Positions 43,221 through 57,149 of a stretch of DNA of 64,000 bases are shown here, in pieces (position 1 is the first letter of the stretch; each line of letters opens with the position of its first letter). The stretch comes from Tissierellales bacterium. Lineage in GTDB: Bacteria > Bacillota > Clostridia > Tissierellales > DATGTQ01. Location: contig DATGTQ010000130.1 of assembly GCA_035301805.1 (NCBI GenBank), forward strand, positions 300 through 64,299, read 5' to 3'. The translations under genes were made by a program, and so were the position numbers. Below the pieces are notes generated by a model. It worked only from the letters and a program-made list of their open reading frames with translations. It did no database searches and was not told where the DNA came from.

Positions 43221-43616
43221 ATGGGAAAATTGGTGACATTATTTATTTTAACACCTATTATAGACCTATATATTTTAATTAAGGCTTCCAAATCTATGGG
43301 ATTTTGGACCACTGTATTACTTATTATAATTACGGGAATCGCTGGATATTTTTTAGCTAAAAGTGAAGGAAAGGTTGTAGTAAGTAAAATTAACGAAGAG
43401 CTATCACAGGGGAATATTCCAGGGGAAGATATTTTAAATGGTTTTTGTATATTAATAGGCGGGTTCCTTCTTTTATTGCCAGGAATTTTAACAGATATAG
43501 TAGGAATTACTATGATATTACCTGGAGCAAGAGATTTATATAAAGAGTATATAAGAAGAAAGTTTACAAGTATGATAGAAAGAGGAGATAGAACTTTATT
43601 TTTTAGATGGTATTAG
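43221..43616 (+). CDS. fxsA: FxsA family membrane protein
   Basis: LFILTPIIDLYILIKASKSMGFWTTVLLIIITGIAGYFLAKSEG...LLLPGILTD. Confidence 0.8.
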   Translation: MGKLVTLFILTPIIDLYILIKASKSMGFWTTVLLIIITGIAGYFLAKSEGKVVVSKINEELSQGNIPGEDILNGFCILIGGFLLLLPGILTDIVGITMILPGARDLYKEYIRRKFTSMIERGDRTLFFRWY

Positions 43617-43637
43617 CCTTTATTCAAAGAGGATGTT

Positions 43638-43670
43638 GGGAAATGGATAGCTACAACTATTTCCCTTTTT
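43638..43670 (+). terminator. Rho-independent terminator of fxsA
   Basis: gggaaat-(14 nt)-atttccc followed by ttttt. Confidence 0.6.
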
Positions 43671-43805
43671 GTTATAGTGAAAATTAGAATACAAAATGAC
43701 ATTTTTGGAATTTATAAATTATATAGATTTCAAGATTGTAATAAGTGTAAGTATATGGCAAAATGTTTATACAGATATAAAGAAGAAAAAGATATAGATA
43801 AAAAT

Positions 43806-43865
43806 AAAGAGTGCTTAGGAATTTGCTTCTTAAAAGAAGTTAGTTCCTAAGCACTCTTTATTTTA
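43806..43865 (+). terminator. Long near-perfect hairpin (orphan terminator-like element)
   Basis: aaagagtgcttaggaa (43806-43821) pairs perfectly with ttcctaagcactcttt (43844-43859). There is an inner cttctt-aa-aagaag stem, and attttag follows. No annotated gene ends here. Confidence 0.5.
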
Positions 43866-44048
43866 GGCCTGAGGGATTAAAACTTGCTTTTTCCCGACAG
43901 CTATTTTTATGTTTTTCAACCTATAAGGGATATTAATAACTTTAAAAAAGCTATTAATATTTCCAATTATAAATATATTTTATTCTGTGTTATAATTCAT
44001 ATGCTAGGTAAACATTTAACACTATACTATAAAAAAGGAGGCTAGTTC

Positions 44049-45014
44049 ATGAAGGAAAGTAATAGAAAAAGATTAAGTTTAATAATGGTTTTAGTATTAG
44101 TATTGTCTCTTTCTTTAATTGGATGTTCAAAAGATGCAGGAACAAATGAGGTTAAAGATCTCAATAAGAATGTAGAAGAAAATATTAAATTTGAAGACGA
44201 TACATATATTGTAGATGCTGAGTGGTTAAAGGAAAACATGGAGAAGGAAAATTTATTAATATTAGATGCTAGGGGGCAAGAAGCTTATGATAAGGGACAT
44301 ATACCAGGTGCAATAGCTGTTATGTGGCAACAGTTTGCTGATATTGATGGAACTCCAGGAGAAGATCTAAACTGGGGAACAGTCCTTGAGCCAGACACTT
44401 TATCCCAAAGGTTTTCTGAAGTTGGGATAGACGAGGATAAAGAGATAGTAGTTTATACCAACACAAAAAAAGGTTGGGGAGAAGATGGAAGAATTGTATG
44501 GATGCTTAGAAGATCAGGATTGGATAATACAAAAATCTTAGACGGTGGATGGGACTATTGGAAATCAGAAGGCTATGAGGTATCAAAGGAACCAGTAGAA
44601 CCAACGTCTACAAATTTTAAAGTAAAAGAGTTAGACTCTAAAACAAATATAGAAACTGAAGAATTAGTTAATAAAGTAGACGATGTAGTTATTATAGATG
44701 TAAGAGAAAAAGATGAGTATGAAGGAGCTACAAAGTATGGAGAAGTAAGAGGTGGACATTTACCAGGAGCAATCAATATACCATTTAATAGCTTTTTAGA
44801 GAAAAACGGTACAATAAAAAATCCAGAAGAAATTAAAGCCATACTTGAAGAAAATGGAGTTAATAAAGATGATGAAATAGTTACATATTGTACAGCGGGT
44901 ATTCGTTCAGCTCATATGCAGATAGTCTTAACTATGTTAGGATATGATAATGTACAGAACTTTGATGCAAGTTTTCATGCATGGGCCGGGAGCCCAGAGC
45001 TTGAATTAGAGTAA
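44049..45014 (+). CDS. Exported tandem-rhodanese sulfurtransferase lipoprotein (YnjE/thiosulfate sulfurtransferase-like)
   Basis: Lipobox LIGC. Two rhodanese domains: the first is inactive-type, and the second carries the catalytic loop YCTAGIRSAH (C-x2-G-x-R). AAGGAGG SD. Confidence 0.8.
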   Translation: MKESNRKRLSLIMVLVLVLSLSLIGCSKDAGTNEVKDLNKNVEENIKFEDDTYIVDAEWLKENMEKENLLILDARGQEAYDKGHIPGAIAVMWQQFADIDGTPGEDLNWGTVLEPDTLSQRFSEVGIDEDKEIVVYTNTKKGWGEDGRIVWMLRRSGLDNTKILDGGWDYWKSEGYEVSKEPVEPTSTNFKVKELDSKTNIETEELVNKVDDVVIIDVREKDEYEGATKYGEVRGGHLPGAINIPFNSFLEKNGTIKNPEEIKAILEENGVNKDDEIVTYCTAGIRSAHMQIVLTMLGYDNVQNFDASFHAWAGSPELELE

Positions 45015-45035
45015 TTAAAAGGAGAGATGTATAAA

Positions 45036-45479
45036 ATGAAAAAATTTACTGTAGCAGTAATTGCATTGTTAACATTGACACTATTAATGACAGGCTGTGG
45101 AAAAAAAGAAACGGATGGAGTTGCTGACGAATTTAAATATCATACTGCAGAAGAAGTAAAAGAATTTATTGAAAAAGATGAGGATATGATTCTATTAGAT
45201 ATTCAACCTGAAGAAGATTGGGACAAACACCATATTAAAGGAGCTATAGCAACTTATGCTTTCCCTGCAGATGATGATGAAGGCAAAGCAAAGTTAGATG
45301 AAGTTCTACCTACTCTTGAAGAATCAGAAGATAAGATAATAATAATATGCCCTCGTGGTGGTGGTGGAGCTGAAAATACCCATAAATACTTAGTAGAAAA
45401 AGGTATAAAAGAAGATCGTCTTTATATATTAGAAAAAGGTCAAGAGGGTTGGCCATATGATGAACTTTTAGAAGATTAA
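45036..45479 (+). CDS. Exported single-domain rhodanese-like lipoprotein
   Basis: Lipobox MTGC. Rhodanese fold (LLDIQPEEDWDKHHIKGA) with the Cys loop ICPRGGGGAE. ATG 45036 lies 9 nt after AAGGAGAG. Confidence 0.75.
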   Translation: MKKFTVAVIALLTLTLLMTGCGKKETDGVADEFKYHTAEEVKEFIEKDEDMILLDIQPEEDWDKHHIKGAIATYAFPADDDEGKAKLDEVLPTLEESEDKIIIICPRGGGGAENTHKYLVEKGIKEDRLYILEKGQEGWPYDELLED

Positions 45480-45500
45480 AGTAAATTTAAGAAAGGCTGA

Positions 45501-46232
45501 TTGATAAGATTGAGAAAGTTAAGCAAATCTGTATGGATTAAAATAGGTGTTCTTGTGGTAGTTGCATTAATATGTATATTTGTAACACCAGTTAGAAATG
45601 GAATTAAAAACATTGTCCATTTATTTAGTCTTTTAGATGTGGAAGCTGTAAAAGAATATATACTATCTTTTGGGATATGGGCGCCAGTAATATCTTTTTT
45701 TCTAATGATCTTCCAGTCAATAGCTGCGCCACTTCCTGCATTTTTAATAACCTTTGCAAACGCTAGTTTATTTGGTTGGGTAAAAGGAGCAATATTATCC
45801 TGGTCTAGTGCAATGGCAGGTGCGGCACTGTGTTTCTATATTTCAAGGATTTATGGCCGGAATGCAGCTGAAAAGTTTACTAGTAAATTTGCCCTAGATG
45901 AAATAGAAAAGTTTTTTGAAAGATATGGTGATTATGCAATTCTTATAGCAAGATTATTACCTTTCATATCTTTTGATATTGTAAGTTATGCAGCAGGTCT
46001 TACCCCTATGAATTTTTGGTCATTTTTCTGGGCTACAGGATTAGGACAACTTCCCGCAACTTTGATCTATTCTTATGTTGGGGGAATGCTTACAGGAGGA
46101 GTAAAAAAATTTGTAACTGGACTTCTAATTCTATTTTCATTAAGTGCTTTAATATTCTTAATGAAGAAAATTTACAATGATAGAACTGCCAAAAAAGAAA
46201 CGAAGATGAAAACTGCTGAAAAGAATCAGTAA
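45501..46232 (+). CDS. TVP38/TMEM64 (DedA superfamily, SNARE-associated PF09335-like) membrane protein
   Basis: ...FFLMIFQSIAAPLPAFLITFANASLFG...RLLPFISFDIVSYAAGLTPMNFWSF... is the typical TVP38 core. The start (TTG 45501 or 45510) is uncertain. Confidence 0.7.
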   Translation: MIRLRKLSKSVWIKIGVLVVVALICIFVTPVRNGIKNIVHLFSLLDVEAVKEYILSFGIWAPVISFFLMIFQSIAAPLPAFLITFANASLFGWVKGAILSWSSAMAGAALCFYISRIYGRNAAEKFTSKFALDEIEKFFERYGDYAILIARLLPFISFDIVSYAAGLTPMNFWSFFWATGLGQLPATLIYSYVGGMLTGGVKKFVTGLLILFSLSALIFLMKKIYNDRTAKKETKMKTAEKNQ

Positions 46233-46240
46233 TTTAATAA

Positions 46241-46273
46241 AAAGGGGTTGTTTCTAGTAGAGACAATCCTTTT
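46241..46273 (+). terminator. Possible weak internal terminator or attenuator hairpin
   Basis: aaaggggttgtttc-tagta-gagacaatcctttt forms a 14-bp stem including 3 G-U pairs, with only a short U tract. Confidence 0.3.
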
Positions 46274-46293
46274 AGCTTGATAAGGGTGAAAAT

Positions 46294-47445
46294 ATGGAAA
46301 AGATTAATATTGAAAAAAGAATCTTAGATAGAATCAACATAGAGTATGAGAAATGTATAGGCTGTAAACTATGTATGAAAGGCTGTCCTATGCTAGATGA
46401 GTTTTGTGATTCTCCAAAAGAATTATTAGGGAAATTGATAGGAGAAGGAAAAGTAGATTACAAACTGCCTTATTCATGTTTACTTTGTGGTTATTGTACA
46501 AAAGTTTGTCCTAAAGATGTGGACCTAAAAAAATTATTTTTCCAGTTGAGAAATAATATTATTAAGGAATCAAATGGAGAACCTCCTAAAGAATTAGGTT
46601 ATGCATCGATAAAATTTCATCAAAAAAATAGTTTCTCCAAATTATTTAGCACAGATATAAAAGGTATGGATAATGATTCTGATATTATCTTTTTTCCCGG
46701 CTGTAGCTTAATGGCTTATAGCCCTAAAATAGTTGAGAAAACCTATGAATATTTAAAAGATAATATACCTGGTATGGGAATTTATATAAAATGTTGTGGT
46801 AAACCAACTTTATTTATGGGAGACGAAAAAAGGTTTATTAAATATTATGACATAATAAAGGAAGATTTTGAAAAAAATAGTGTGAAACGAGTAATAACAG
46901 CCTGCCCTAATTGTTTTAATACTATAAAAAATACTAGCGAGAATGTGAAAGTAATATCTCTATGGGATGTTATATCAGAAGTTGGAGTTCCTAAAAATGT
47001 AAAGGGGAAAGGGGAAAATGTTGAACTAACTTTTTCTATACATGATCCATGCCCTACAAGAGATGAAAGAAAGACTCACAATGCCATTAGAAATATTTTA
47101 GATGGAATAGGGCTTAAGTATAAAGAAAATGAGTTTTCTGGAGAAGAAACTCTTTGCTGTGGAGCAGGGGGGATGGTTTTTTTAGCTAACGAATCCATAG
47201 CTCTAGGTCAAAAGAAGAAAAGAGCTACTGAATTAGAAGAAGAGCATATAATAACCTATTGTGAAGAATGTGTTCAGTCTATGAAAAGTGGGGGTAAAAA
47301 ATCCTTTCATGTTCTAGATTTATTATTCCATGAGGAAATATATGAAAGCTTCAATCAAAAAGATGTAAGTTTTATAGGTAAATGGATAAATAGGTATAAG
47401 GGAAGGGCAAGGATAAAATGGAAAAATCAAGACAAGGAGTATTAA
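46294..47445 (+). CDS. (Fe-S)-binding protein: two 4Fe-4S ferredoxin motifs plus two CCG domains (HdrD/GlpC/LutA-like)
   Basis: CIGCKLCMKGCP and CLLCGYCTKVCP. CCG-type cysteines follow: FFPGCSL...IKCCGKP and HDPCP...TLCCGAGG. Confidence 0.75.
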   Translation: MEKINIEKRILDRINIEYEKCIGCKLCMKGCPMLDEFCDSPKELLGKLIGEGKVDYKLPYSCLLCGYCTKVCPKDVDLKKLFFQLRNNIIKESNGEPPKELGYASIKFHQKNSFSKLFSTDIKGMDNDSDIIFFPGCSLMAYSPKIVEKTYEYLKDNIPGMGIYIKCCGKPTLFMGDEKRFIKYYDIIKEDFEKNSVKRVITACPNCFNTIKNTSENVKVISLWDVISEVGVPKNVKGKGENVELTFSIHDPCPTRDERKTHNAIRNILDGIGLKYKENEFSGEETLCCGAGGMVFLANESIALGQKKKRATELEEEHIITYCEECVQSMKSGGKKSFHVLDLLFHEEIYESFNQKDVSFIGKWINRYKGRARIKWKNQDKEY

Positions 47446-48110
47446 AATATGTATTTGCTTTTATTATAATAGGGGTAATAATTTTTATTCTTAATAAATT
47501 TAATATTTTTAAAGGCTATGGGGCTAATGAAATGAAAGAATATGTAAAATCTTTTGGGGTATGGGCTCCTATAATTTATTTAGGAATACTTTCTATACTT
47601 CCTCTTCTTTTATTTCCAGACTCTGTAATGGTTATGGCTGGGGGAATGATTTTTGGTTTGTATAAAGGAACACTATTAACCTTATTGGGCTCTTTAATTG
47701 GGGGTACTGTGGCTTTTTGCATTTCTAGAAATCTAGGACAAAATGCAGTTAAGAAAATTATAAAAAAGGATTTAGTTTTGTTTAGAGAACAATCTGAGAA
47801 AAATGGATTTATTATAATATTACTTCTTAGACTTGTGCCCCTTTTTCCTTTTAAAGTAGTGAGTTATAGTGCTGGACTATCAGATATAAAATATAAAGAT
47901 TTCTTATTAGCTACTGCAATAGGAGCATTACCAGGAATGATTGTATATACCAATGTAGGAGATAAGTCTACTGCTATAGGTAGTACTAGCTTTTATATTT
48001 CCATAGGTCTATTATTATTGCTTATAGTTGTATCTCTATGGTTAAAAAAGAAATTTTCAACAAAAGACATAGGAGGGATTGAAAGTGAAGAGAAAGATGT
48101 TCAAAAATAG
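47418..48110 (+). CDS. TVP38/TMEM64 (DedA superfamily) membrane protein, second copy
   Basis: ...LLLFPDSVMVMAGGMIFG...RLVPLFPFKVVSYSAGLSDIKYKDF... Its start overlaps the end of the Fe-S gene by 28 nt. Confidence 0.7.
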   Translation: MEKSRQGVLKYVFAFIIIGVIIFILNKFNIFKGYGANEMKEYVKSFGVWAPIIYLGILSILPLLLFPDSVMVMAGGMIFGLYKGTLLTLLGSLIGGTVAFCISRNLGQNAVKKIIKKDLVLFREQSEKNGFIIILLLRLVPLFPFKVVSYSAGLSDIKYKDFLLATAIGALPGMIVYTNVGDKSTAIGSTSFYISIGLLLLLIVVSLWLKKKFSTKDIGGIESEEKDVQK

Positions 48111-49335
48111 TTTAATACTTTTATTAATAGGAATTTTAGCATTAAATTTAGTTGGTTGTGGGAAAAAAGAAATAAATGATGAAGATGTATTAGAAAAGGA
48201 TTGGGATGAAATATTAGAAGTTGCAAAAGGGACTACTGTTAATTTTTATGGTTGGGGTGGTAGTCAACAATATAATTCTTGGGTTGACGGATATTTATCA
48301 GACAAGCTTAAAGAAGAATATGATATAACCCTTAATAGAGTAGGTATGGACATAGATGAGATACTAAATAAATTATTAAATGAGAAGCAAGTAGATGCAA
48401 AAGATGGAGATATAGATATGGTTTGGATAAATGGGGAAAACTTTTTTACTGCAAAAGAAAACGACTTATTATTTGGTCCTTTTACAGACAAGCTTCCAAA
48501 CTTTGAAAAATATTTAGATGTGGATTCTGTTGAAGTTAAATATGACTTTGGTTATCCCGTGGAAGGTTATGAATCTCCTTATGGAAAAGCTCAATTTGTG
48601 TTGGTATGTGATAGTGAGAAAGTAGAGGAACCTCCTAAGGGTCATGAAGAATTATTCAATTGGGCTAAAGAAAACCCTGGCAAATTTACTTATCCTGCAT
48701 TACCTGATTTTACAGGTTCTGTATTTGTCAGAAATATTATATGTGACATAGTCGGTTATGAACAATTTATGGATATGGAAGCAGACGAAGAAACAGTAAG
48801 AGAAGCTATTGAACCTGCAATGGATTATTTAAAAGAATTAAAACCTTATTTATGGAAGGAAGGAAAAACTTATCCAGCTGACTCTGCATTATTAGATAAT
48901 ATGTATGCAGATGGAGAAGTAGTAATGACTATGACTTACAATCCTAATTCTCCTTCAGGGAAAATAGTTACAGGAGAGTATCCAGATTCTACAAAAACTT
49001 TTGTATTTGACAAAGGAACTGTAGGAAACACTCATTTTATAGGGATACCTTTTAATGCACAGAATAAAGCTGGAGCTATGGCAGCTATAGATTATATATT
49101 AAATGTTGAAGTTCAAGCATCAAAGTATGTGCCTGGAAACTGGGGGGATTTACCAGTTGTGGACAATAATAAATTAAGTGCTGAAGAAAAAGAAATTTTA
49201 GAATCAGTAGATCTAGGTAAAGCAACTCTTCCTCAAGATGTATTAGCAGAACATAGGATACCAGAAATACCAGCTGATTTAGTACCTATTATAGAAAAAA
49301 TTTGGATGGAAACTATTCCAGGCGAGAGTGATTAG
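48085..49335 (+). CDS. ABC transporter substrate-binding lipoprotein, YnjB (COG4134) family
   Basis: Lipobox LVGC. Colinear with E. coli YnjB as I remember it: FYGWGGS, DMVWINGENF, FTYPALPDFTGSVF, LKPYLWKEGKTYP, GNTHFIGIP, NWGD. GTG 48085 lies 7 nt after AGGAGGG and overlaps the upstream gene. Confidence 0.75.
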   Translation: MKRKMFKNSLILLLIGILALNLVGCGKKEINDEDVLEKDWDEILEVAKGTTVNFYGWGGSQQYNSWVDGYLSDKLKEEYDITLNRVGMDIDEILNKLLNEKQVDAKDGDIDMVWINGENFFTAKENDLLFGPFTDKLPNFEKYLDVDSVEVKYDFGYPVEGYESPYGKAQFVLVCDSEKVEEPPKGHEELFNWAKENPGKFTYPALPDFTGSVFVRNIICDIVGYEQFMDMEADEETVREAIEPAMDYLKELKPYLWKEGKTYPADSALLDNMYADGEVVMTMTYNPNSPSGKIVTGEYPDSTKTFVFDKGTVGNTHFIGIPFNAQNKAGAMAAIDYILNVEVQASKYVPGNWGDLPVVDNNKLSAEEKEILESVDLGKATLPQDVLAEHRIPEIPADLVPIIEKIWMETIPGESD

Positions 49336-50201
49336 TGTTGAAGGGCAAAATAAAACCTTATATTTTAATAACTCCTATTATGATTATTATATTAGGAATA
49401 TTTGTTACAGGTTTAATTATGGGATTTATTCAAAGCTTAGGTCATTTCAAAGCTATAGGACTTAATGGATTTACACTGAAGTACTATAAAGAAGTGTTAA
49501 CAAGTAAAGATTTTTTATCTTCTTTAGGCTTTAGTTTTTATATATCAATAGTTTCTTCAGTAATTGCTATAGTATTAGGAATACTTTTATCTTATTCTAT
49601 ATTCAGGATTGATAGTAAGAGAAAAACTATAGACTTTATGTATAAGTTTCCCATCATAGTACCTCATATTGTGGCTGTATTACTTGTATATAATATATTG
49701 GTTCAAAATGGAATACTTCCTAGAATTTTATATTTTATTGGTTTAATAAAGGAGCCCTTTCAATTTCCATCCCTTCTATATGAGAAGAATGGAGTTGGAA
49801 TAATCATAGCTTACCTGTGGAAGGAGGTACCTTTTGTGGCTATGGTTACTTATACAATTTTAGGCAATTTAAGTTATAATCTTTCTGAAGTAGCCCTGAA
49901 TCTTGGGGCTACTAATAGACAGGTGTTTTTTCACGTATTTCTTCCATTAATAATGCCATCAGTATTGTCAGCTTTTATAATAATATTTGCATTTTCTTTT
50001 GGAGCTTATGAGGTGCCCTTTCTTTTGGGAGCTACATCTCCAAAAGCATTATCTGTTAAAGCTTTTATAGAATATAGTAATCCTGATTTAACTAATAGAC
50101 CTTATGCTATGGTTATAAATATGATACTGACCTTTTTATCTTTTATTTTAGTAGGGTTCTATCAAAAGACTTTTGAGTTAATTTCTGAATATAAGGGGTG
50201 A
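49335..50201 (+). CDS. ABC transporter permease (YnjC N-half-like)
   Basis: Six predicted TMs and an EAA-type loop (...EVALNLGATNRQVFFHVFLPLIMP...). Its start abuts the SBP stop. Confidence 0.75.
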   Translation: MLKGKIKPYILITPIMIIILGIFVTGLIMGFIQSLGHFKAIGLNGFTLKYYKEVLTSKDFLSSLGFSFYISIVSSVIAIVLGILLSYSIFRIDSKRKTIDFMYKFPIIVPHIVAVLLVYNILVQNGILPRILYFIGLIKEPFQFPSLLYEKNGVGIIIAYLWKEVPFVAMVTYTILGNLSYNLSEVALNLGATNRQVFFHVFLPLIMPSVLSAFIIIFAFSFGAYEVPFLLGATSPKALSVKAFIEYSNPDLTNRPYAMVINMILTFLSFILVGFYQKTFELISEYKG

Positions 50202-50205
50202 TTAT

Positions 50206-51015
50206 TTGGATAACAAAAATTCATTTATATTTAAAATAATAACTTATATTTTCCTAATATTTTTAGTGTTGCCCCTTATAGTCATTGTTATCTGGAGTTT
50301 CACTAAAAATTGGCCTTGGCCAAATTTAATGCCAAAAGAATTTGGACTAAGAGGATGGAAGCATTTTTTTAATCCTTCTAGTAGGTCATTAGAAACACTT
50401 TTAAGTAGCATTTGGTTGTCTTTAGTCGTAACTATTATTGCTTTAATAATAAGCATTCCAGCTGGAAAGGCTTTAGGAATATATGATTTTAAAGGTAAAA
50501 AGGTAGTAGAACTTTTAATATTTGCACCAGTAATGGTTCCTACTGTTGCAATAGCTATGGGGATACATCTTTCCTTTTTAAAAGTAGGTCTTGCAAATAC
50601 TTTCCAAGGTGTTGTTCTAATTCATCTAATTCCTTGTATTCCCTATAGCGTAAGAATACTACAAAATGTCTTTGAAATAGTAGGAGATTCATTAGATATG
50701 CAAGCTAAGGTATTAGGGGCTAGTCCATTACAAGTCTTTATTCATGTAACTCTACCCTTAATAGCACCGGGAATAGTTTCAGCAGGTAGTATGGTTTTTA
50801 TAGTGTCTTTTAGTCAATATTTTTTAACGCTTTTAATTGGTGGAGGAAAAATTGTAACATTTTCTATGATTATGTTTCCCTTTATTCAAAGTGGAGATAG
50901 AATGATGGGGGCTGTTTATAGTATTGTATTTATTTTAGCCACTCTTATATGTTTAGGTATAATGGAAAAGGCTATTAAACATTTTTATAAAAGTGGAAAC
51001 TTCTTTTTTAGCTAG
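50206..51015 (+). CDS. ABC transporter permease (YnjC C-half-like)
   Basis: Polytopic, with an EAA-type loop (...MQAKVLGASPLQVFIHVTLPLIAP...). TTG start after AAGGGGTGA. Confidence 0.75.
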   Translation: MDNKNSFIFKIITYIFLIFLVLPLIVIVIWSFTKNWPWPNLMPKEFGLRGWKHFFNPSSRSLETLLSSIWLSLVVTIIALIISIPAGKALGIYDFKGKKVVELLIFAPVMVPTVAIAMGIHLSFLKVGLANTFQGVVLIHLIPCIPYSVRILQNVFEIVGDSLDMQAKVLGASPLQVFIHVTLPLIAPGIVSAGSMVFIVSFSQYFLTLLIGGGKIVTFSMIMFPFIQSGDRMMGAVYSIVFILATLICLGIMEKAIKHFYKSGNFFFS

Positions 51016-51047
51016 TTTAAATGAATTTAAGTTAAAGGAGTATTTAT

Positions 51048-52064
51048 ATGTCTAGAATTGATTTGCAAAATATATCTAAAAGCTTTGACAAAAAGAGGGT
51101 ATTAGATAATATTAATCTTGTAGTTCCAGAAGGGAAGTTAATATCCTTACTTGGACCCTCTGGATGTGGGAAAACGACAACTTTAAAAATTATTGCTGGT
51201 TTGTTAAATCCAGATGAAGGAGATATATTGCTTGAAGGTAGTTCCGTATTAAAGGTTCCAGTAGAGAAAAGGGGAGCTGTAATAGTGTTTCAAGATTATC
51301 TATTATTTCCTCATTTAAATGTGGGAGATAATATTGGTTTTGGTCTTAAAATGGCAAAGGTAGATAAAGAAATAATAAGAAAACAAGTTCAAAAAATGTT
51401 AAGATTAGTCCAATTAGAAGGATATGAAAAAAGAATGCCCCATGAATTGTCTGGAGGTCAGAAACAAAGAGTTGCTTTAGCTAGAGCATTAGCCATAGAG
51501 CCAAAAGTACTTCTTCTTGATGAACCATTTTCTAATTTGGATAGGAAGCTTAGAGAAGATATGAGAGATTTTATATTAAACTTACAAAGAAGGCTTAATA
51601 TTACAACTGTATTAGTCACTCATGATAAAGAGGAGGCTTTGATGACTTCAGATAAAATAGCAGTTATGTTAGATGGGAAAATAAAACAATCTGGTACACC
51701 TTTAGAATTATATGAAAAGCCATATTGTCCAGAAGTAGCAAATTTTCTTGGTGAAAAAAACTACATTAAAGGTAATATAATAGATGGGTATTTTATAAGT
51801 AATATTTTTAAAATTAAAACTGATGTTCCTAATGAAAAGAATGTAAAGGCTATGATAAAACCTGAAGAAATAAAATTATTACCCCTGAGTGGGACAAATA
51901 TAAAAGGTAAGGTAATAGTAAAGAGATATGCAGGAGATAGAATATATTATACAGTTAAAATAGGAAATGTTGAATTGAAGTCAATATCTGACTCCAATAC
52001 AATATTTGAACCAGGAGATGAAGTTTCTATTTTAATAGATTATGACAAGATGATATTTTTTTAA
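51048..52064 (+). CDS. ABC transporter ATP-binding protein (PotA/FbpC-type with C-terminal TOBE-like domain)
   Basis: GPSGCGKTT, LSGGQKQRVALARAL, LLLDEPFSNLD, THD, plus a C-terminal beta-rich domain of about 100 aa. Confidence 0.85.
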   Translation: MSRIDLQNISKSFDKKRVLDNINLVVPEGKLISLLGPSGCGKTTTLKIIAGLLNPDEGDILLEGSSVLKVPVEKRGAVIVFQDYLLFPHLNVGDNIGFGLKMAKVDKEIIRKQVQKMLRLVQLEGYEKRMPHELSGGQKQRVALARALAIEPKVLLLDEPFSNLDRKLREDMRDFILNLQRRLNITTVLVTHDKEEALMTSDKIAVMLDGKIKQSGTPLELYEKPYCPEVANFLGEKNYIKGNIIDGYFISNIFKIKTDVPNEKNVKAMIKPEEIKLLPLSGTNIKGKVIVKRYAGDRIYYTVKIGNVELKSISDSNTIFEPGDEVSILIDYDKMIFF

Positions 52065-52081
52065 AATAAGGAGCCATTAAT

Positions 52082-52756
52082 ATGATTTCTATAATTATAC
52101 CAATTTTAAATGAAGAAGGAACAATAGAAAAGACTTTAGATCAGCTGAGCAAGCTAGAAGGAGATAAAGAAATTATAGTTGTAGACGGTGGTAGTACCGA
52201 TAATACAGTTGAAATTGCAAATAAGTATTGTACTGTAATAAATAGTCCTAAGGGAAGGGCAAGACAGATGAATTGTGGTGCCCAAATAGCAAAGGGAAAT
52301 ATATTATGGTTTTTCCATTCTGATTCTAAAGCATCTGTAGATTCTTTAAACAGCATAAAAAATACTATTGATGATGGATATATCGGTGGAGGATTTCAGT
52401 TATATTTCTATGATTTAGATACCTTATTTATGAAATTCATTGCTAAGACATCAAATATAAGAGCTAAATATTTTCATTTGTTTTTTGGAGATCAAGGTAT
52501 ATTTGTAAGAAAAGATGTATTTGAATATATGAATGGATATAAGGATATAGAGCTTATGGAAGACTTTGACTTTTCTAGAAGATTTCATAAACTAGGAAAG
52601 ACTAAAATGACAGAATCTAAAATTGGCACATCGGCTAGAAGGTTCAACTCTGGTGGTCAACTAAAGACTTTTTTCCTTATGAAAAAGATACAATTATTGT
52701 ATATATTAGGAACACCACCTTCAAAACTAAATCAGATGTATAGAGAGGTGAGATAA
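52082..52756 (+). CDS. Family 2 glycosyltransferase-like protein (resembles TIGR04283, 'rSAM/selenodomain-associated transferase 2')
   Basis: ISIIIPILNEE...EIIVVDGGSTDNTVEIA...SPKGRARQMNCGAQIAKGNILWFFHSDS. The GRA.QMN.GA motif is what I remember as characteristic of that subfamily. Confidence 0.65.
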   Translation: MISIIIPILNEEGTIEKTLDQLSKLEGDKEIIVVDGGSTDNTVEIANKYCTVINSPKGRARQMNCGAQIAKGNILWFFHSDSKASVDSLNSIKNTIDDGYIGGGFQLYFYDLDTLFMKFIAKTSNIRAKYFHLFFGDQGIFVRKDVFEYMNGYKDIELMEDFDFSRRFHKLGKTKMTESKIGTSARRFNSGGQLKTFFLMKKIQLLYILGTPPSKLNQMYREVR

Positions 52757-53440
52757 GTGAATGCTTTAATTCTTATGACTAGGATACCGATACCCGGCAA
52801 GACAAAAACTAGACTAATGGATATATTAACAGGAATTGAATGTGCAGAAATTCATAAGGCTTTTTTATTAGATCTATTTAATCTATTCAATTATTTGAAA
52901 GATGATGTAGATATATACCTTACCTATACACCAGAAGATTCTTTTCACATTTTCGGAGATATGATTCCAAACTATATTAAAACCTTTCCCCAAAAAGGTG
53001 GAGACTTAGGTGAAAAAATGAGAAATGCTATGGAAGAAGTTTTAGACAAAGGATATGACTCGGTAATATTAATAGGCTCCGATATACCTAATATTCAACC
53101 AGATGACATATATAAGGCTTTTGATTTATTAGAAGAGAATGATATTTGTTTAGGACCGAGTTTTGATGGAGGATATTATTTGATTGGTATGAAAAGATTA
53201 TACTCTGTAATATTTGATAATGATTTAAAATGGGGTAAAAAATCTGTTCTTGAAAGGACTGTTGATATAGCAAATAGGGAGGGGCTTTCAGTAGGTTTAG
53301 CTATCAAGCATATGGATATTGATACAAAAGAAGACTTATTAAAGTTTTCTGAAGAAATGGAAAAGAATAATAAAAATATGATTATTCCACAAAATACCTT
53401 GGAATATATTCAGAATATGGAGTGGATTCATTATGCTTAA
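52757..53440 (+). CDS. DUF2064 / CofC-like nucleotidyltransferase-fold protein (resembles TIGR04282, 'rSAM/selenodomain-associated transferase 1')
   Basis: LILMTRIPIPGKTKTRLMDIL N-terminus, QKGGDLGEKM, LIGSDIPNI, and GPSFDGGYYLIG are the DUF2064 hallmarks. GTG start directly after the GT2 stop, preceded by GAGAGGTGA. Confidence 0.7.
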   Translation: MNALILMTRIPIPGKTKTRLMDILTGIECAEIHKAFLLDLFNLFNYLKDDVDIYLTYTPEDSFHIFGDMIPNYIKTFPQKGGDLGEKMRNAMEEVLDKGYDSVILIGSDIPNIQPDDIYKAFDLLEENDICLGPSFDGGYYLIGMKRLYSVIFDNDLKWGKKSVLERTVDIANREGLSVGLAIKHMDIDTKEDLLKFSEEMEKNNKNMIIPQNTLEYIQNMEWIHYA

Positions 53441-54446
53441 AGAGAATCTAATAAATAAAATTAATGAATATATTAATAAATATAGGAATAAAAATGTTTT
53501 AAATATTAATGTTGGAGAAGATTATAATGTTTCATTTTTAGCTCAAGGAGAGTATAATATAAATTTTATTCTAGAATCTAATTTAAATAAAAATGTTTTT
53601 AGAGTTAATACTGGGAGTCAATTAGAATTAAAAAATCAAATAAAATATGAATATTGTGCATTAAAATCATTAGAGGTATCCGGTGTTACGCCAAAAGTAT
53701 ATTACGTAGATGATACTAAGAATTATTTTGATTATGGAATTCTAATAATGGAATTTTTAGAAGGAAGACCATTAGAGTATAATAAAGACCTTAAAAAGGC
53801 AGGAAAAATATTTTCTAAAATACACTCTATTGACTTAAATAAAATAAATAATGATAACTTTATTGTAGAGTCAAATATTTTTACAGAGAGAGTTAAAGAA
53901 GCAGAAAGACTATTAGATAAATTTTGGGATTCATCTATTGTAAATATAGAATTAAAAAGATATTTTGATAGATTTCTTAATTGGGCTATAAAGAATAAAG
54001 CAAAGGAAAAATATTTTATTGAAAATAAATGGCATGTAATAAATAATACAGAGGTTAATTCTCATAATTTTATTATAGGCGATAATGGAAATTATCTAAT
54101 AGACTGGGAGAAACCGGTTATTAGTGATCCTTGTCAAGATTTAACTCAATTTTTAGCGCCTACTACTACTTTATGGAGGGCTGATTACTTATTAAGTAAG
54201 GAAGAGGAAGAAAGTTTTTTTAAAGAATATATAGATGGCTTGGGAGGAGAAGATAGAAATATTAGGGATAGAGTCTATATGTATAATCCATATTTATATT
54301 TAAGAGCATTGTCTTGGTGTGCATATGCATATATAGAATATCATGATCCAAACAAAGAAATTAAGAATATGGATACTTTTAATAAAGTAAAAGAATATTT
54401 GCAAATAGATTTTATGGATGATCTTTTAAAAGATTATTTGGTTTAA
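53433..54446 (+). CDS. Phosphotransferase-family (APH / choline-kinase-like) small-molecule kinase
   Basis: The N-lobe (FLAQGEYNINFIL...VFRVN) and C-lobe (...NFIIGDNGNYLIDWEKPVISDPCQDLTQFL) match the APH/ChoK fold. Its start overlaps the upstream stop by 8 nt. Confidence 0.65.
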   Translation: MLKENLINKINEYINKYRNKNVLNINVGEDYNVSFLAQGEYNINFILESNLNKNVFRVNTGSQLELKNQIKYEYCALKSLEVSGVTPKVYYVDDTKNYFDYGILIMEFLEGRPLEYNKDLKKAGKIFSKIHSIDLNKINNDNFIVESNIFTERVKEAERLLDKFWDSSIVNIELKRYFDRFLNWAIKNKAKEKYFIENKWHVINNTEVNSHNFIIGDNGNYLIDWEKPVISDPCQDLTQFLAPTTTLWRADYLLSKEEEESFFKEYIDGLGGEDRNIRDRVYMYNPYLYLRALSWCAYAYIEYHDPNKEIKNMDTFNKVKEYLQIDFMDDLLKDYLV

Positions 54447-54511
54447 TGATACTACAACTAATTTTTATGACCTTGAAACATATAAAAAGTGGATATAAAA
54501 GGAGATTATAA

Positions 54512-55099
54512 ATGTTAGATACTTATGGGAGAAAATATATAAGCGCTCTAATTAAAAATGTTGCAGACTTTTTTATCAAATTAAACTTTACAGCAAATCA
54601 AATTACTAAATTAGCCTTTATTATTGGTATATTCTCAGGAGTATTTGTCTATTTTGACAAAGCTGTAATGGCTGTAGTAGTTCTTTGGGTATCTGGGCTC
54701 TTAGATGCAGTAGATGGAGAAATTGCTCGACGACAAAAAGATACTACAGATTGGGGAACAGTTATGGATATAACTTTTGATAGGATAGTAGAAATTTCTG
54801 TAATAATAGGATTAGGATTAAGATATACAGATTCAAGAATCCATTTGTTATTTTTATCATGTTCAATAATTATTTCAATGACTATTTTTTTAACTGTAGG
54901 TGCTCTTTCTGAAAAAAAGAGTAGTAAGTCTTTCTATTATCAGGCTGGTATTATGGAAAGAACAGAAGGGTTTATTATGTTTACATTAATGATACTATTT
55001 AGTGGTAAATTAAGTCTATTTACGGTAATATACGCAGTATTGGTGTTTATAACAGCTATGCAAAGATTAGCAGAGGCAAAGGATATACTTGAAGATTAA
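54512..55099 (+). CDS. CDP-alcohol phosphotransferase family membrane protein
   Basis: The complete signature D-x2-DG-x2-AR-x8-G-x3-D-x3-D is present in DAVDGEIARRQKDTTDWGTVMDITFDR. 195 aa with several TMs. Confidence 0.85.
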   Translation: MLDTYGRKYISALIKNVADFFIKLNFTANQITKLAFIIGIFSGVFVYFDKAVMAVVVLWVSGLLDAVDGEIARRQKDTTDWGTVMDITFDRIVEISVIIGLGLRYTDSRIHLLFLSCSIIISMTIFLTVGALSEKKSSKSFYYQAGIMERTEGFIMFTLMILFSGKLSLFTVIYAVLVFITAMQRLAEAKDILED

Positions 55100-55582
55100 T
55101 ATTAGGTGCTTTGTAAGACTTTTCTTGTATTATTAAATTATATTTGAACTTTTAAATGACAAAAGTTTATCAAGTATATCTATAAGGTTTTCATATTCAT
55201 AAATAAAATGAATTTAATTATGTAATTAAATTGTATTACAATGTCAATACAACTGTATAAGTAATTGGTTTTTTTGAGATCTATTTAAAAGTGGGGATTT
55301 TTGTAGTCCATATTTTGTAAACTTGGTTTATATTAGGATTTCAATTGGTCTCTACTAGGTATGAATTTTAGTGGACGACTTTCTGATTTCAACCTTTTAC
55401 ATATATCAACTAATATATAATATTTTAGAATCTATTATATATAATCAGAAGATGATACTAAAGGCAATGTGTTTAGGATGATTTATCATAACAATTTATT
55501 AAGTAGAATGACTTAAATAAATAGAGTTAATAGTAAATATGGAAAGAATATAAATAAATTTTTATCATGTTTTCTCGCGTTT

Positions 55583-55771
55583 ATGATGATTTTTTCCATA
55601 GAAGAAGTAAATGAAGTAGAGGAAGCAATTAATAAAGCTATAAAAGCTTTAAAAGAGGAAAACCAGAAGAACCAGGGTTTCCCCATTATTTCATTAATCC
55701 ATCACGTCAACAAACTTTCAGGGGTTACTTCCAACACATGGAGATGTATGCTGAAAGCATTGAAAAATTAA
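55583..55771 (+). other. Doubtful 62-aa ORF, possibly a frameshifted small gene
   Basis: No SD is visible. A second frame (+2) stays open from 55636 to the TAG at 55831 and encodes an E/P/Q-rich tail. A-runs at 55641-55663 could host a frameshift. Confidence 0.2.
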
Positions 55772-55935
55772 AGGACTCAAAAGAACCACAAGAACCGGGA
55801 CAACTAGAACAACTGGAACCAAAGAGGAGATAGAATATTTTTTTAGATGATATTAATTTAATTCTAAGATTAGGTGCTTTTACATATTTATGTTATAATC
55901 AATCCATAAGTGTCAAAAAAAGAGGAGGGGTCTCG

Positions 55936-56532: not shown

Positions 56533-56560
56533 GACAAGTTAGGACTTATTTATAAATGAA

Positions 56561-56665
56561 TATAAATTTAGGGGTGCTTATATTGATAGGCTGAGATAGA
56601 AATGTTATTTCTGACTCTGTGAACCTGATTTGGGTAATTCCAATGGAGGGATATATTAATTTATA
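56561..56665 (+). promoter_or_regulatory. TPP (THI-box) riboswitch aptamer
   Basis: GGGGTGC (56571), CTGAGA (56591), and ACTCTGTGAACCTGATTTGGGTAATTCCAATGGAGGGA (56614-56651) match the conserved THI-element cores (GGGGUGC...CUGAGA...ACCUGAU.UGG.UAAU.CCA...GGGA). A P1 candidate pairs tataaatt (56561-56568) with aatttata (56658-56665). Confidence 0.85.
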
Positions 56666-56675
56666 TAGTGATGAT

Positions 56676-56713
56676 AAAAAGCTATGTACCTTTGTTGGGT
56701 GCATAGCTTTTTA
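56676..56713 (+). terminator. Riboswitch expression-platform terminator
   Basis: aaaagctatgtacc (56677-56690) pairs with ggtgcatagctttt (56698-56711) in a 14-bp stem with one G-U pair, ending in a U run. Confidence 0.8.
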
Positions 56714-57088: not shown

Positions 57089-57149
57089 CTCTGATTTTAT
57101 GATATAATTAACAATGTTATATACTGAAGATATAAAAGGAGGAGAACCT

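Follow-up and report, generated by a model that had tools for sequence, protein, structure and literature searches.

A Firmicute Version of the Escherichia coli ydjX-ynjF Locus Carries ArsS-Associated Transferase Genes

An array of 13 genes in a Tissierellales bacterium is a Firmicute version of the ydjXYZ-ynjABCD / ynjE / ynjF locus of Escherichia coli, with ArsS-associated transferases in addition. The family memberships of its products, its gene order, its synteny with E. coli and the recurrent co-location of its genes, including co-location with ArsS and with ars operons, are observed. We propose tentatively, and with somewhat less than even confidence, that the array encodes an envelope system for the uptake and processing of an organoarsenical, which it would probably attach to a membrane lipid. 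What we infer in this reading is the arsenical nature of the substrate, the sequence of steps, the direction in which the rhodaneses work and the lipid product.

Results

Gene content and limits of the cluster

The window, that is, the whole stretch of 64,000 nucleotides that was analysed (contig DATGTQ010000130.1), contains 13 co-directional and tightly spaced genes on the + strand between 44049 and 55099, which form one operon-like unit. The features are as follows.

43806 to 43864, + strand: terminator-like hairpin, 16-bp stem AAAGAGTGCTTAGGAA / TTCCTAAGCACTCTTT followed by a T-run
44049 to 45014, + strand: exported lipoprotein of 321 aa with two rhodanese domains (PF00581, 2 stretches, E 5e-40)
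45027 to 45479, + strand: exported single-domain rhodanese lipoprotein, 150 aa (PF00581, E 5.7e-12)
45501 to 46232, + strand: VTT/DedA (TVP38-type) membrane protein, YdjZ orthologue (PF09335)
46294 to 47445, + strand: cytoplasmic Fe-S/CCG protein (PF02754 CCG and Fer4 families)
47418 to 48110, + strand: second VTT/DedA membrane protein, YdjX-like (PF09335)
48085 to 49335, + strand: YnjB-family substrate-binding lipoprotein, 416 aa, lipobox LVGC (NF008633)
49335 to 50201, + strand: ABC permease 1, counterpart of the N-terminal half of YnjC, which is a fused protein (PF00528, BPD_transp_1)
50206 to 51015, + strand: ABC permease 2, counterpart of the C-terminal half of YnjC (PF00528, BPD_transp_1)
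51048 to 52064, + strand: ABC ATPase, YnjD-like (PF00005, PF08402)
52082 to 52756, + strand: family-2 glycosyltransferase, TIGR04283 "arsenosugar biosynthesis glycosyltransferase" (243.5 bits, cut-off 182)
52757 to 53440, + strand: DUF2064 / CofC-like protein of nucleotidyltransferase fold, TIGR04282 (191.6 bits against 134; PF09837, PF01983)
53433 to 54446, + strand: APH-fold small-molecule kinase, choline/thiamine-kinase-like (PF01636)
54512 to 55099, + strand: CDP-alcohol phosphatidyltransferase, YnjF orthologue (PF01066)

The hairpin, which was read from the sequence and is absent from the output of a simple terminator scan, ends the fxsA unit that lies upstream and delimits the cluster on its 5' side, and a ribosome binding site, AAAGGAGG, lies ahead of the ATG at 44049. 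All open reading frames named in an earlier note on this DNA are present on the + strand, but that note passed over the two VTT/DedA genes and the Fe-S/CCG gene between the rhodaneses and the binding protein, and it ended the cluster at 52064, where in fact the array runs on through four further genes. ArsS, ArsM, an ars operon and a nucleoside hydrolase were all absent from the 64-kb window. The host of the cluster is a low-GC anaerobe.

Binding protein and transporter

The binding protein scores 495.6 bits on the NCBIfam YnjB-family model NF008633/PRK11622 (cut-off 203) over its full length (residues 20-411 against profile positions 9-394 of 397), where E. coli YnjB itself scores 559.9 bits, and it is 35% identical to YnjB by BLASTP (377 aa, E 1e-73), which bears out its earlier identification as a YnjB counterpart. 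The motifs named in that identification, WINGENF, TYPxxPDFTG, PYLWxEGK and GNxHF, are all conserved in both proteins when they are aligned. The GTG start at 48085 is correct, the 416-aa product being identical to that of a gene called on an ENA contig. A better fit to a family of defined substrate was looked for, and the next-best profile was PotD, at 16.5 bits (cut-off 582). In an AF2 model (pLDDT 89.9) the protein has a predicted cluster-D fold without a close solved relative; its structural neighbours are PhnS, FutA/FbpA, PotD, AfuA and TbpA, at 12-20% identity, and the modelled fold offers no feature that points to a ligand.

Two permeases and an ATPase follow, as had been described. The permeases resemble the fused YnjC only weakly (E 5e-5 and, for permease 2 against YnjC residues 368-463, 9e-10). 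Over 194 aa the ATPase shares 40% identity with YnjD, but at 338 aa it has an extra C-terminal TOBE domain, whereas YnjD is 217 aa long.

Rhodaneses, membrane proteins and Fe-S protein

Both rhodaneses at the head of the cluster carry lipoprotein signal peptides, with the lipoboxes LIGC (LSLSLIGC/SKD) in the larger and MTGC (LTLLMTGC/GKK) in the smaller, as first reported. The catalytic loop of the larger, CTAGIR at residue 281, occupies the same alignment columns as the YnjE loop CGTGWR, a likeness proposed earlier; the protein is 22% identical to YnjE (E 6e-18) and has two domains, whereas YnjE has three. It also gives sub-threshold matches to NF040901 ExtH and NF045521 rhoda_near_glyco. Closer YnjE-type rhodaneses, with the loop CGTGWRA and 36-43% identity where compared, occur in other Firmicute loci of the same kind, and almost all full-length rhodaneses of YnjB loci bear signal peptides or lipoboxes. 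The 150-aa rhodanese has the loop CPRGGG, its start is placed at 45036 by the gene call on a near-identical contig, and its orthologues adjoin the binding protein in two other loci (L019 and L049).

The first VTT/DedA protein is 53% identical to E. coli YdjZ (229 aa, E 4e-81), its start being put at 45555 by the gene call on L162; the second is 30% identical to YdjX (E 5e-27). The Fe-S/CCG protein, a 2x[4Fe-4S] ferredoxin part with two heterodisulfide-reductase-like CCG domains, corresponds to the C-terminal two thirds of NF045663 "diclust_near_Sec" (271 bits, profile positions 301-661) and falls under the cut-off of 530 because the flavoprotein part is missing; one related locus (L011) holds a full-length member at 550 bits.

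Transferase and kinase genes

The kinase gives weak matches to GntI and ThiK. The YnjF orthologue (30% identity, 196 aa, E 3e-17) has a readable D-x2-DG-x2-AR-x8-G-x3-D-x3-D motif. The names of TIGR04282 and TIGR04283, both labelled "arsenosugar biosynthesis" transferases, were themselves inferred from gene neighbourhood.

Comparison with E. coli

The cluster covers almost the whole of the uncharacterised ydjX-ynjF locus. The correspondence to ynjBCD-ynjE drawn in the earlier note is supported, but it was too narrow, since synteny takes in ydjZ, ydjX and ynjF as well. The Fe-S/CCG protein stands in the place of YdjY, to which it has a weak, ferredoxin-like match (E 0.03), and the present cluster carries TIGR04283, TIGR04282 and kinase genes that the E. 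coli locus lacks. FNR is a direct activator of ydjXYZ-ynjABCD and of ynjE in E. coli (PMC3688515). ArsS and ArsM are likewise absent from the E. coli locus. E. coli is not known to carry ArsS or ArsM anywhere in its genome, and the core function therefore does not depend on these genes.

Survey of related loci

We surveyed 80 loci anchored on the binding protein, from Firmicutes (Bacillota) and one Anaerolineales genome (L080). Permease 1 follows the binding protein in 74 and permease 2 is found in 77, and every locus has at least one recurrent partner: DedA/VTT (56), CDP-alcohol phosphatidyltransferase (42), rhodanese (35), Fe-S/CCG (27), kinase (23), nucleoside hydrolase (23), TIGR04283 (23) and TIGR04282 (19). 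The conserved neighbourhood was also seen in E. coli-type loci from metagenomes.

In 35 of the 80 loci, or in 18 of 33 groups when binding proteins are collapsed at 70% identity, a rhodanese is found no more than 10 kb from the binding protein, against an expectation of about 4% that is a rough figure derived from the nine rhodanese genes of E. coli (PMC10215317) per 4.64 Mb. The rhodanese link is thus enriched, yet it is lineage-dependent: among 22 distant loci only two have a rhodanese, one of which (L127) is actually 74% identical to YnjB. Both tests by which the earlier note could have been refuted, a better fit of the binding protein to a family of defined substrate and a lack of enrichment of adjacent rhodaneses, favour its reading. 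In distant lineages it is the CDP-alcohol phosphatidyltransferase YnjF that remains as a partner, in 10 of the 22 loci.

The kinase and TIGR04283 genes occur together in 21 of 23 loci. Beside the transporter, the CDP-alcohol phosphatidyltransferase (41 loci) and TIGR04283 (22 loci) are almost mutually exclusive, and they meet only in L011 and in the present cluster.

Links to ArsS and arsenic

ArsS is the radical-SAM enzyme with which arsenosugar synthesis begins. It converts dimethylarsenite to 5'-deoxy-5'-dimethylarsinoyladenosine by adenosylation (PMC13598754). Accessory genes of YnjB clusters surround ArsS in five of six distinct ArsS-anchored Firmicute loci. L168/L175 combines ArsS with a rhodanese, a TIGR04282-kinase fusion, two VTT genes, TIGR04283 and Fe-S/CCG; L170 has in addition a nucleoside hydrolase, and its rhodanese is 43% identical to YnjE; L171 has a flippase-like gene, a PrdB-like selenoprotein, a rhodanese and ArsS, and adjoins arsB/R/C/D/A. 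ArsS and a YnjBCD-type transporter share one array in L026 and L174, the latter with orthologues of YdjY (51%), YdjZ (54.5%), YdjX (33%) and YnjE (39%). TIGR04283 orthologues lie within the ArsS operons L168 (217 bits), L170 and L174, and the TIGR04282-kinase fusion is found in L026, L032, L168, L170 and L174. The YdjZ-type VTT gene is 52-62% identical between transporter loci and ArsS operons, the product described here reaching 58-62% with those of L168 and L170.

Only one of the 80 loci has ArsS at 10 kb or less from the binding protein, and the ArsS-anchored loci contain no CDP-alcohol phosphatidyltransferase. The Tissierella orthologue of the cluster has arsR-arsP-arsR-arsD-arsA-acr3-arsC as its divergent neighbour; 8 of the 80 loci have ars genes no further than 10 kb away, an adjacency that comes from only about three genera. 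In Bacteroidota, ArsS is placed between TIGR04169 and an arsenosugar-type ArsM.

Discussion

The ArsS-associated transferases point to a substrate class that the earlier note had not considered. In the pathway that we propose, the two rhodanese lipoproteins on the outer face would prepare an organoarsenical by sulfur transfer or reduction, for example by interconverting its thio, oxo and trivalent forms; the YnjB-type lipoprotein would capture it, and the two permeases and the ATPase would import it. Reducing power would come from the Fe-S/CCG protein in the cytoplasm, the kinase and the CofC-like TIGR04282 protein would activate the compound to a nucleotide-linked intermediate, TIGR04283 and the YnjF-type transferase would transfer it to an acceptor, either glycerol or a lipid, to yield a phospholipid of arsenosugar type, and the two VTT/DedA proteins would move this lipid, or an intermediate linked to lipid, to the other side of the membrane. 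This single line may really be two alternative branches, because the CDP-alcohol transferase and TIGR04283 are nearly exclusive and the former is missing from ArsS loci.

Counted against the arsenical pathway are, besides the absence of ArsS, ArsM and ars genes from the window and the rarity of ArsS near the binding protein, the many neighbours that are classic sulfur or selenium trafficking genes. Acquisition of these chalcogens without arsenic, the model implicit in the earlier note by analogy with YnjE, PspE and YeeE/YeeD, would have the rhodaneses draw on thiosulfate, polysulfide or selenite to mobilise sulfane sulfur or selenium; the product would enter through YnjBCD, and its reduction would fall to the Fe-S/CCG protein and flavoprotein reductases. 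The rhodanese loops are of the six-residue sulfurtransferase type, and the larger rhodanese matches ExtH of selenite/tellurite operons below threshold; related loci have a split YedE/FdhT with a TusA/YedF-like protein (12), a cysteine desulfurase/selenocysteine-lyase family protein (5), a TIGR03169 "N-terminal to SelD"-like oxidoreductase (18), a PrdB-like selenoprotein (12) and NF045663, and SelD and SelB adjoin L174. These neighbours do not separate the two models, because arsenic chemistry would also use sulfur transfer and selenocysteine. We nevertheless judge a chalcogen system unlikely: it has no role for the persistent CDP-alcohol phosphatidyltransferase or for the kinase, nucleotidyltransferase, glycosyltransferase and nucleoside hydrolase set, it leaves the adjacency to ArsS and ars operons unexplained, and YnjE acts poorly on thiosulfate and 3-mercaptopyruvate (PMC10215317).

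Slightly less likely still is a salvage route that supplies the head group of an ordinary membrane lipid free of metalloids. YnjBCD would bring in a polar alcohol, which YnjF would couple to CDP-diacylglycerol in the way that phosphatidylcholine synthase uses imported choline, or a Kennedy-type route would lead from kinase through nucleotidyltransferase to CDP-alcohol transferase; flipping of the lipid would be the task of VTT/DedA proteins, with an accessory or unrelated role for the redox and rhodanese genes. Salvage agrees with YnjB-YnjC-YnjD-YnjF being the arrangement kept in the most distant loci, with the presence of DedA genes in 38 of 42 loci with a CDP-alcohol transferase, with the kinase-nucleotidyltransferase fusions, which imply consecutive steps, and with a predicted binding-protein fold whose class includes binders of amines, phosphonates and sugar phosphates. 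Redox or chalcogen-handling partners in 75 of 80 loci are, however, too many for chance neighbours, and the YdjZ-type VTT protein is conserved specifically between transporter loci and ArsS operons. That the transporter is an ordinary polyamine, thiamine, phosphonate or iron importer among chance neighbours we regard as highly improbable. Homologues are annotated "putative spermidine/putrescine transport system" in source records, the permeases and ATPase match PotB/C, PhnU/V and PotA models below threshold, and PhnS, FbpA, PotD and TbpA are among the structural neighbours; the distance of the binding protein from PotD, the low identity to those neighbours and a neighbourhood conserved in all 80 loci and in metagenomic E. 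coli-type loci speak against it.

The helper genes shared with ArsS loci suggest a testable function for the orphan YnjBCD transporter.

Gene content of the cluster

Thirteen genes, all on the + strand, lie between a terminator-like hairpin at 43806-43864 and a gene-poor stretch past 55099, with spacing within the array ranging from overlap up to 65 nt. Gene families were assigned using Pfam and NCBIfam. The earlier note described a Firmicute counterpart of the E. coli ynjBCD-ynjE association at 44049-52064; the genes it named are present, and its boundaries and the genes it passed over are corrected here to the following set, which ends at 55099.

Genes of the cluster (start or range, strand, product)
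44049, +, two-domain rhodanese lipoprotein, 321 aa
45027, +, rhodanese lipoprotein, 150 aa
45501-46232, +, VTT/DedA membrane protein (first, YdjZ-like)
46294, +, protein with two [4Fe-4S] and two CCG domains (Fe-S/CCG protein)
47418, +, VTT/DedA protein (second, YdjX-like)
48085, +, binding lipoprotein
49335, +, permease
50206, +, permease
51048, +, ABC ATPase with TOBE domain (49335-52064 together with the permeases)
52082, +, family-2 glycosyltransferase (TIGR04283)
52757, +, DUF2064/CofC-like protein (TIGR04282)
53433, +, APH-fold kinase
54512, +, CDP-alcohol phosphatidyltransferase

The surrounding genes are housekeeping genes (pfkA, pyk, a thioesterase gene and fxsA upstream), and GC content is approximately 30% throughout. 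Promoter and terminator scans gave no excess over shuffled controls, and the hairpin was recognized by eye. No riboswitch or leader was found with Rfam in the 430 nt upstream of 44049. The sole Rfam match in the window is a TPP riboswitch (RF00059) outside the cluster, at 56560-56669 (+), with 64.4 bits where the gathering threshold is 54.3. Downstream of it lie a small ORF, a TDE2712-family gene (57114-57692) and a gene for a DUF4153 membrane protein (57800-59563), which could encode a thiamine-related transporter. The 64 kb window contains no ars genes, ArsS, nucleoside hydrolase, YedE or PrdB-like genes, and no ArsM (NF038099) was detected among the 29 window ORFs scanned with NCBIfam.

A metagenome contig in ENA (L162) is 99.9-100% identical to window positions 43475-59335 and lacks 490 bases (44247-44736) of the large rhodanese gene, a length that is not divisible by three. 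Either a sister strain has lost DNA between the two rhodanese domains, or the gap arose during assembly.

The binding protein and its transporter

The product of 48085 matches NF008633 / PRK11622 along its full length (residues 20-411 on profile positions 9-394 of 397) with 495.6 bits against a cut-off of 203, where E. coli YnjB itself scores 559.9 bits. It is 35% identical to YnjB (E 1e-73) and conserves all four motifs from which the earlier note had placed it in the YnjB family; that placement is confirmed. The protein does not align better to any family with a defined substrate. PotD, the only other NCBIfam match, reaches 16.5 bits against a cut-off of 582, and the Foldseek neighbours of the AF2 model (pLDDT 89.9), namely PhnS, FbpA, PotD, AfuA and TbpA, are 12-20% identical, with TM scores of 0.5-0.64. 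Membership in a polyamine, thiamine, iron or phosphonate family was rejected on these HMM scores and low structural identities. Since the ligands of the structural neighbours range from iron to sugar phosphates, no ligand can be read from the fold; a sequence search returned no related solved structure, and the literature searched names no substrate for the YnjB family.

The closest relatives of the binding protein are found in Tissierella and allied Clostridia. Its start is GTG 48085, as in an independent gene call of the identical sequence; TTG 48079 was considered, and gene callers use the GTG instead. The gene adjoins those of its own permeases and ATPase, an order kept in 77 of 80 related loci. 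The earlier reading of these three genes as counterparts of YnjC and YnjD holds; the ATPase is 40% identical to YnjD, and the resemblance of the permeases to YnjC is weak.

Exported rhodaneses

Both rhodanese proteins carry PF00581 and a lipobox, and are predicted to reside outside the cytoplasm with a catalytic cysteine. That two such proteins head the cluster, as first noticed from the sequence, holds, and so does the alignment of the CTAGIR loop with CGTGWR of YnjE. The other six-residue active-site loop headed by cysteine, CPRGGG, was read from the sequence. The two-domain rhodanese is a distant relative of YnjE (22% identity, two domains versus three, with the C-x2-G-x-R loop aligned). 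Rhodaneses clearly of the YnjE type are encoded at other loci surveyed, with the CGTGWRA loop and 36-43% identity where compared; nine rhodaneses of related loci have exactly this YnjE loop. Almost all full-length rhodaneses in 80 Firmicute loci anchored on the binding protein bear signal peptides or lipoboxes.

A rhodanese lies within 10 kb of the binding protein in 35 of these 80 loci (18 of 33 groups), compared to an expectation of approximately 4%, which is a rough estimate from E. coli (nine rhodanese genes in 4.64 Mb) and not a measured control. The proposed association of rhodanese and transporter is therefore real, but it depends on lineage: only 2 of 22 distant loci have a rhodanese, and one of these (L127) is in fact a locus at 74% identity. 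In several loci (L019 4789-5211, L007 6121-6552, L032 17294-17695 and L026 16484-16960), the YnjE-type rhodanese directly adjoins a small membrane protein, about 135-160 aa long, that matches no family. YnjE is periplasmic, acts poorly with thiosulfate or 3-mercaptopyruvate, and has a physiological substrate that has been called unclear (PMC10215317).

Rhodaneses outside the cytoplasm are also known from PspE, from TsuA/YeeE with TsuB/YeeD, and from ExtH of the selenite/tellurite reduction operon. All window scores on these models, however, are below cut-off (ExtH, NF040901, 78.9 versus 200), the window has no YeeE/YedE gene, and the partner of its rhodaneses is an ABC importer rather than a YeeE channel.

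Comparison with the E. coli ydjX-ynjF locus

In the MG1655 record, b1750-b1758 comprise ydjX (DedA), ydjY (Fe-S type), ydjZ (DedA), ynjA (AhpD-like), ynjB, ynjC, ynjD and ynjE, and, on the other strand, ynjF (CDP-alcohol phosphatidyltransferase). Common to this locus and the window are two TVP38-type VTT/DedA proteins flanking a redox protein, a YnjB-family protein with its permease(s) and ATPase, and a CDP-alcohol phosphatidyltransferase. Each also encodes an exported rhodanese of more than one domain whose loop fits C-x2-G-x-R, the window protein being a tentative counterpart of YnjE. Pairwise identities range from 22 to 53%. The first window VTT protein is 53% identical to YdjZ and the second 30% identical to YdjX, and the product of the last gene (PF01066) shares 30% identity with YnjF across 196 aa (E 3e-17). 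Because relatives of YdjZ, YdjX and YnjF lie within it, the window cluster is, judged from sequence, the counterpart of the entire E. coli locus, beyond ynjBCD-ynjE. The identity of 45501-46232 to YdjZ represents unusually high cross-phylum conservation for a membrane protein without an assigned function; other gene pairs are mostly 30-40% identical, with YnjE at 22%.

The two loci differ in several respects. The window cluster lacks a YdjY-domain protein (NF040466) and instead has the Fe-S/CCG protein between its VTT genes, which resembles YdjY only weakly, in a ferredoxin-like stretch (E 0.03); YdjY-domain genes are present in L174, a locus anchored on the radical-SAM enzyme ArsS, as well as in 8 of the related Firmicute loci. 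The AhpD-like YnjA has no match in the window, nor in the 80 Firmicute loci at E 1e-5. Two separate genes encode the window permeases, the ATPase carries an added TOBE domain, and the rhodaneses, which are distant relatives of YnjE, are lipoproteins whose genes come first in the cluster. There are three additional genes (TIGR04283, TIGR04282 and the kinase), and the ynjF counterpart is co-directional. In E. coli, FNR directly activates ydjXYZ-ynjABCD and ynjE (PMC3688515).

Conservation of the neighbourhood

A genome scan gave 80 Firmicute loci (L002-L081) with relatives of the binding protein at 43-78% identity. ORFs were labelled by BLAST and a rhodanese HMM, and collapsing the binding proteins at 70% identity resulted in 33 groups. 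At least one partner gene is present in all 80 loci.

Partner genes beside the binding protein (loci of 80; groups of 33)
VTT/DedA: 56; 23
CDP-alcohol phosphatidyltransferase: 42; 18
Fe-S/CCG: 27; 15
Kinase: 23; 9
Nucleoside hydrolase: 23; 10
TIGR04283: 23; 8
TIGR04282: 19; 5

Other recurrent neighbours are a MerA-like flavoprotein, a TIGR03169-like oxidoreductase, a GltD-like flavoprotein completing NF045663, YdjY-domain proteins, cysteine desulfurase, and a flippase-like protein paired with a PrdB-like selenoprotein with an in-frame TGA. Split YedE/YeeE and TusA-like genes replace the VTT genes beside the transporter in about 12 related loci. Two Clostridiaceae loci, L020 and L021, have a radical-SAM-like protein (350 aa, CxxxCxxC, faint CofH/PylB similarity; L021 14039-15091) and a short-chain dehydrogenase after the ATPase, replacing the transferase genes.

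The CDP-alcohol phosphatidyltransferase and TIGR04283 are nearly mutually exclusive beside the transporter (41 versus 22 loci), both being present only in L011 and the window. One linear pathway through the two enzymes is therefore doubtful, and they may represent alternative branches rather than serial steps.

In a second scan, of metagenomes and seeded with E. coli YnjB, enterobacterial loci kept the entire E. coli arrangement. Loci at 45-59% identity have mainly ynjB-ynjC-ynjD-ynjF (10 of 22), sometimes with a MerA-like gene, and of all partners it is YnjF that is kept in distant lineages.

Association with ArsS and ars operons

Two window proteins score above the cut-offs of models named for arsenosugar biosynthesis, TIGR04283 with 243.5 bits (cut-off 182) and TIGR04282 with 191.6 (134), names which at NCBI derive from the neighbourhood of ArsS (TIGR04167). 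ArsS is reported to adenosylate dimethylarsenite to 5'-deoxy-5'-dimethylarsinoyladenosine (PMC13598754). It lies within 10 kb of the transporter in 1 of the 80 loci, L026 from Facklamia, where it scores 336.6 bits against 300. The L026 protein was used as a query for homologues and nine contexts were examined; genes accessory to the transporter in the window surround ArsS in five of six distinct Firmicute contexts.

Gene arrangements in Firmicute loci anchored on ArsS
L168 and L175 (same arrangement): rhodanese, TIGR04282-kinase fusion, two VTT, TIGR04283, Fe-S/CCG, ArsS
L170: TIGR04282-kinase fusion, PrdB-like selenoprotein, rhodanese, VTT, TIGR04283, YnjE-like rhodanese (43% identity to E. 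coli YnjE), nucleoside hydrolase, ArsS, rhodanese
L171: flippase-like gene, PrdB-like protein, rhodanese, ArsS, then arsB, arsR, arsC, arsD, arsA
L174: YnjE orthologue, YnjB-type protein, two permeases, ATPase, rhodanese, TIGR04282-kinase, TIGR04283, PrdB-like protein, ArsS, DsbD, thioredoxin-like protein, YdjZ and YdjX orthologues, nucleoside hydrolase, YdjY orthologue, rhodanese
L167: only an ArsR-type regulator and a flavoprotein-rhodanese-TusA-DsrE fusion

The VTT gene of the ArsS operons is 58-62% identical to the YdjZ-like gene of the window. No CDP-alcohol phosphatidyltransferase was present in the ArsS-anchored loci examined. In Bacteroidota, ArsS is located between TIGR04169 and an arsenosugar-type ArsM (NF038099, 561 bits).

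L174 (251-16830), from a Facklamia-like Firmicute, is a 'Rosetta' locus in which orthologues of ydjX, ydjY, ydjZ and ynjB-E stand with ArsS in one array, SelD and SelB being encoded just downstream. Its YnjE, YdjZ, YdjX and YdjY are 39%, 54.5%, 33% and 51% identical to the E. coli proteins, and its binding protein is 55% identical to that of the window. The view of ArsS and the transporter as 'front ends' that strictly replace one another is weakened, as both occur in one array in L026 and L174.

In 8 of the 80 loci (L002-L004, L010, L051, L052, L059, L061), representing approximately three genera, ars genes are located within 10 kb. In Tissierella (L165, 581-6185), the orthologous cluster is flanked by a complete, divergently oriented ars operon (arsR, arsP, arsR, arsD, arsA, acr3, arsC).

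The PrdB/GrdB-like protein (L007 8957-9709, L170 4599-5273, L171 8032-8718, L174 9092-9832) is probably a selenoprotein, given its in-frame TGA (..ILNPG-U-YIC..) and UxxC motif. It is paired with a flippase-like TIGR00374 gene in Bacillus-type loci and L171, and adjoins the YnjB transporter in Bacillus-type loci and ArsS in others. Fusions of TIGR04282/DUF2064 to the APH kinase (L026 16945-18459, L032 7902-9392, L168 5623-7107, L170 3014-4522, L174 6875-8389) suggest that these two proteins act consecutively.

The ArsS/ArsM pathway (TIGR04167, NF038099, TIGR04169, TIGR04282, TIGR04283) shares TIGR04283 and TIGR04282 with the window, and its Firmicute operons also share the rhodanese, the YdjZ-type VTT protein, the Fe-S/CCG protein and the kinase. 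To our knowledge, only the ArsM and ArsS steps of this pathway have been shown biochemically. ArsS and TIGR04169 are absent from the window, which has the ABC importer and the CDP-alcohol phosphatidyltransferase instead. No ArsS-module gene is found at the E. coli locus in the MG1655 record; YnjA was considered as the ArsS-associated peroxidase-like TIGR04169 and rejected, as its best match was to a YciW-related model and stayed under the cut-off. In the genes it contains, the window cluster combines the E. coli locus with the ArsS/ArsM arsenosugar pathway. The interpretation put forward in the earlier note is supported but was too narrow, as it left out the rest of the E. coli locus and the ArsS-associated genes.

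Proposed function

From the observed family memberships and co-location statistics we infer a single envelope system of four sub-modules. Extracytoplasmic processing would be carried out by the exported rhodaneses and, in relatives, by YdjY or by DsbD and thioredoxin; the YnjBCD-type importer would then bring in the product. Cytoplasmic reduction may involve the Fe-S/CCG protein here, and elsewhere a flavoprotein, the AhpD-like protein or the PrdB-like selenoprotein. Fixation would proceed from the kinase to the CofC-like nucleotidyltransferase and on to the glycosyltransferase and/or the CDP-alcohol phosphatidyltransferase, with the VTT/DedA proteins acting on the lipid.

An organoarsenical is, tentatively, the most likely cargo. 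The nucleoside hydrolase of relatives would fit removal of adenine from an ArsS-type product, and sulfur transfer by the rhodaneses, a purely inferred step, would fit known thio/oxo arsenical chemistry. Against an arsenical we count that the window lacks ArsS, ars genes and nucleoside hydrolase, that the E. coli locus has no ArsS module, that ArsS stands beside the transporter in only 1 of 80 loci, that the ArsS-anchored loci examined lack the CDP-alcohol transferase, that this transferase and TIGR04283 so seldom occur together beside the transporter, and that the binding-protein fold points to no ligand. It is also conceivable, though rather doubtful, that YnjBCD, YdjX-YdjZ, YnjE and YnjF, including those of E. 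coli, serve widespread anaerobic uptake of environmental organoarsenicals (arsenic in methylated or thiolated form, or arsenoribosides that are already preformed), the rhodaneses switching between thio, oxo and trivalent forms and the arsenic becoming locked into membrane phospholipids.

The many sulfur and selenium trafficking genes among the neighbours would suit a system handling these chalcogens only, which we regard as unlikely. Plain salvage of a lipid head group seems to us less likely still. Choline ABC import with phosphatidylcholine synthase, or the Kennedy-type route through LicA and LicC, follows the same logic of importer, kinase, nucleotidyltransferase and CDP-alcohol transferase; however, the binding protein, kinase and nucleotidyltransferase of the window fall outside the ChoX, LicA and LicC families, and the nucleotidyltransferase is CofC/DUF2064-like.

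Beyond FNR regulation and the negative YnjE kinetics, the literature searched assigned no function to YnjBCD, YdjX/YdjZ or YnjF, nor did it connect them with arsenic or selenite. The NCBIfam names 'rhoda_near_glyco', 'diclust_near_Sec' and 'arsenosugar biosynthesis glycosyltransferase' show that curators saw parts of this neighbourhood. The families are all known already, and Firmicutes commonly have such clusters; the novelty lies in the connection, through which the transporter and the y-genes of E. coli acquire a function that can be tested.

YnjBCD, YdjX/YdjZ, YnjE (which has a crystal structure) and YnjF are long-standing E. coli y-genes without a physiological function. The comparative evidence joins this problem with the post-ArsS steps of arsenosugar and arsenolipid formation, and both become testable. 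If the widespread organoarsenical uptake considered above is real, the orphan transporter and the YnjE rhodanese would gain a function and the missing post-ArsS steps toward arsenosugar lipids would be identified. Should the link to arsenic hold, anaerobes, gut bacteria among them, would possess a pathway dedicated to taking up dietary or environmental organoarsenicals and building them into lipids, with a bearing on arsenic speciation and toxicity, and the DedA/VTT proteins would gain a defined lipid cargo.
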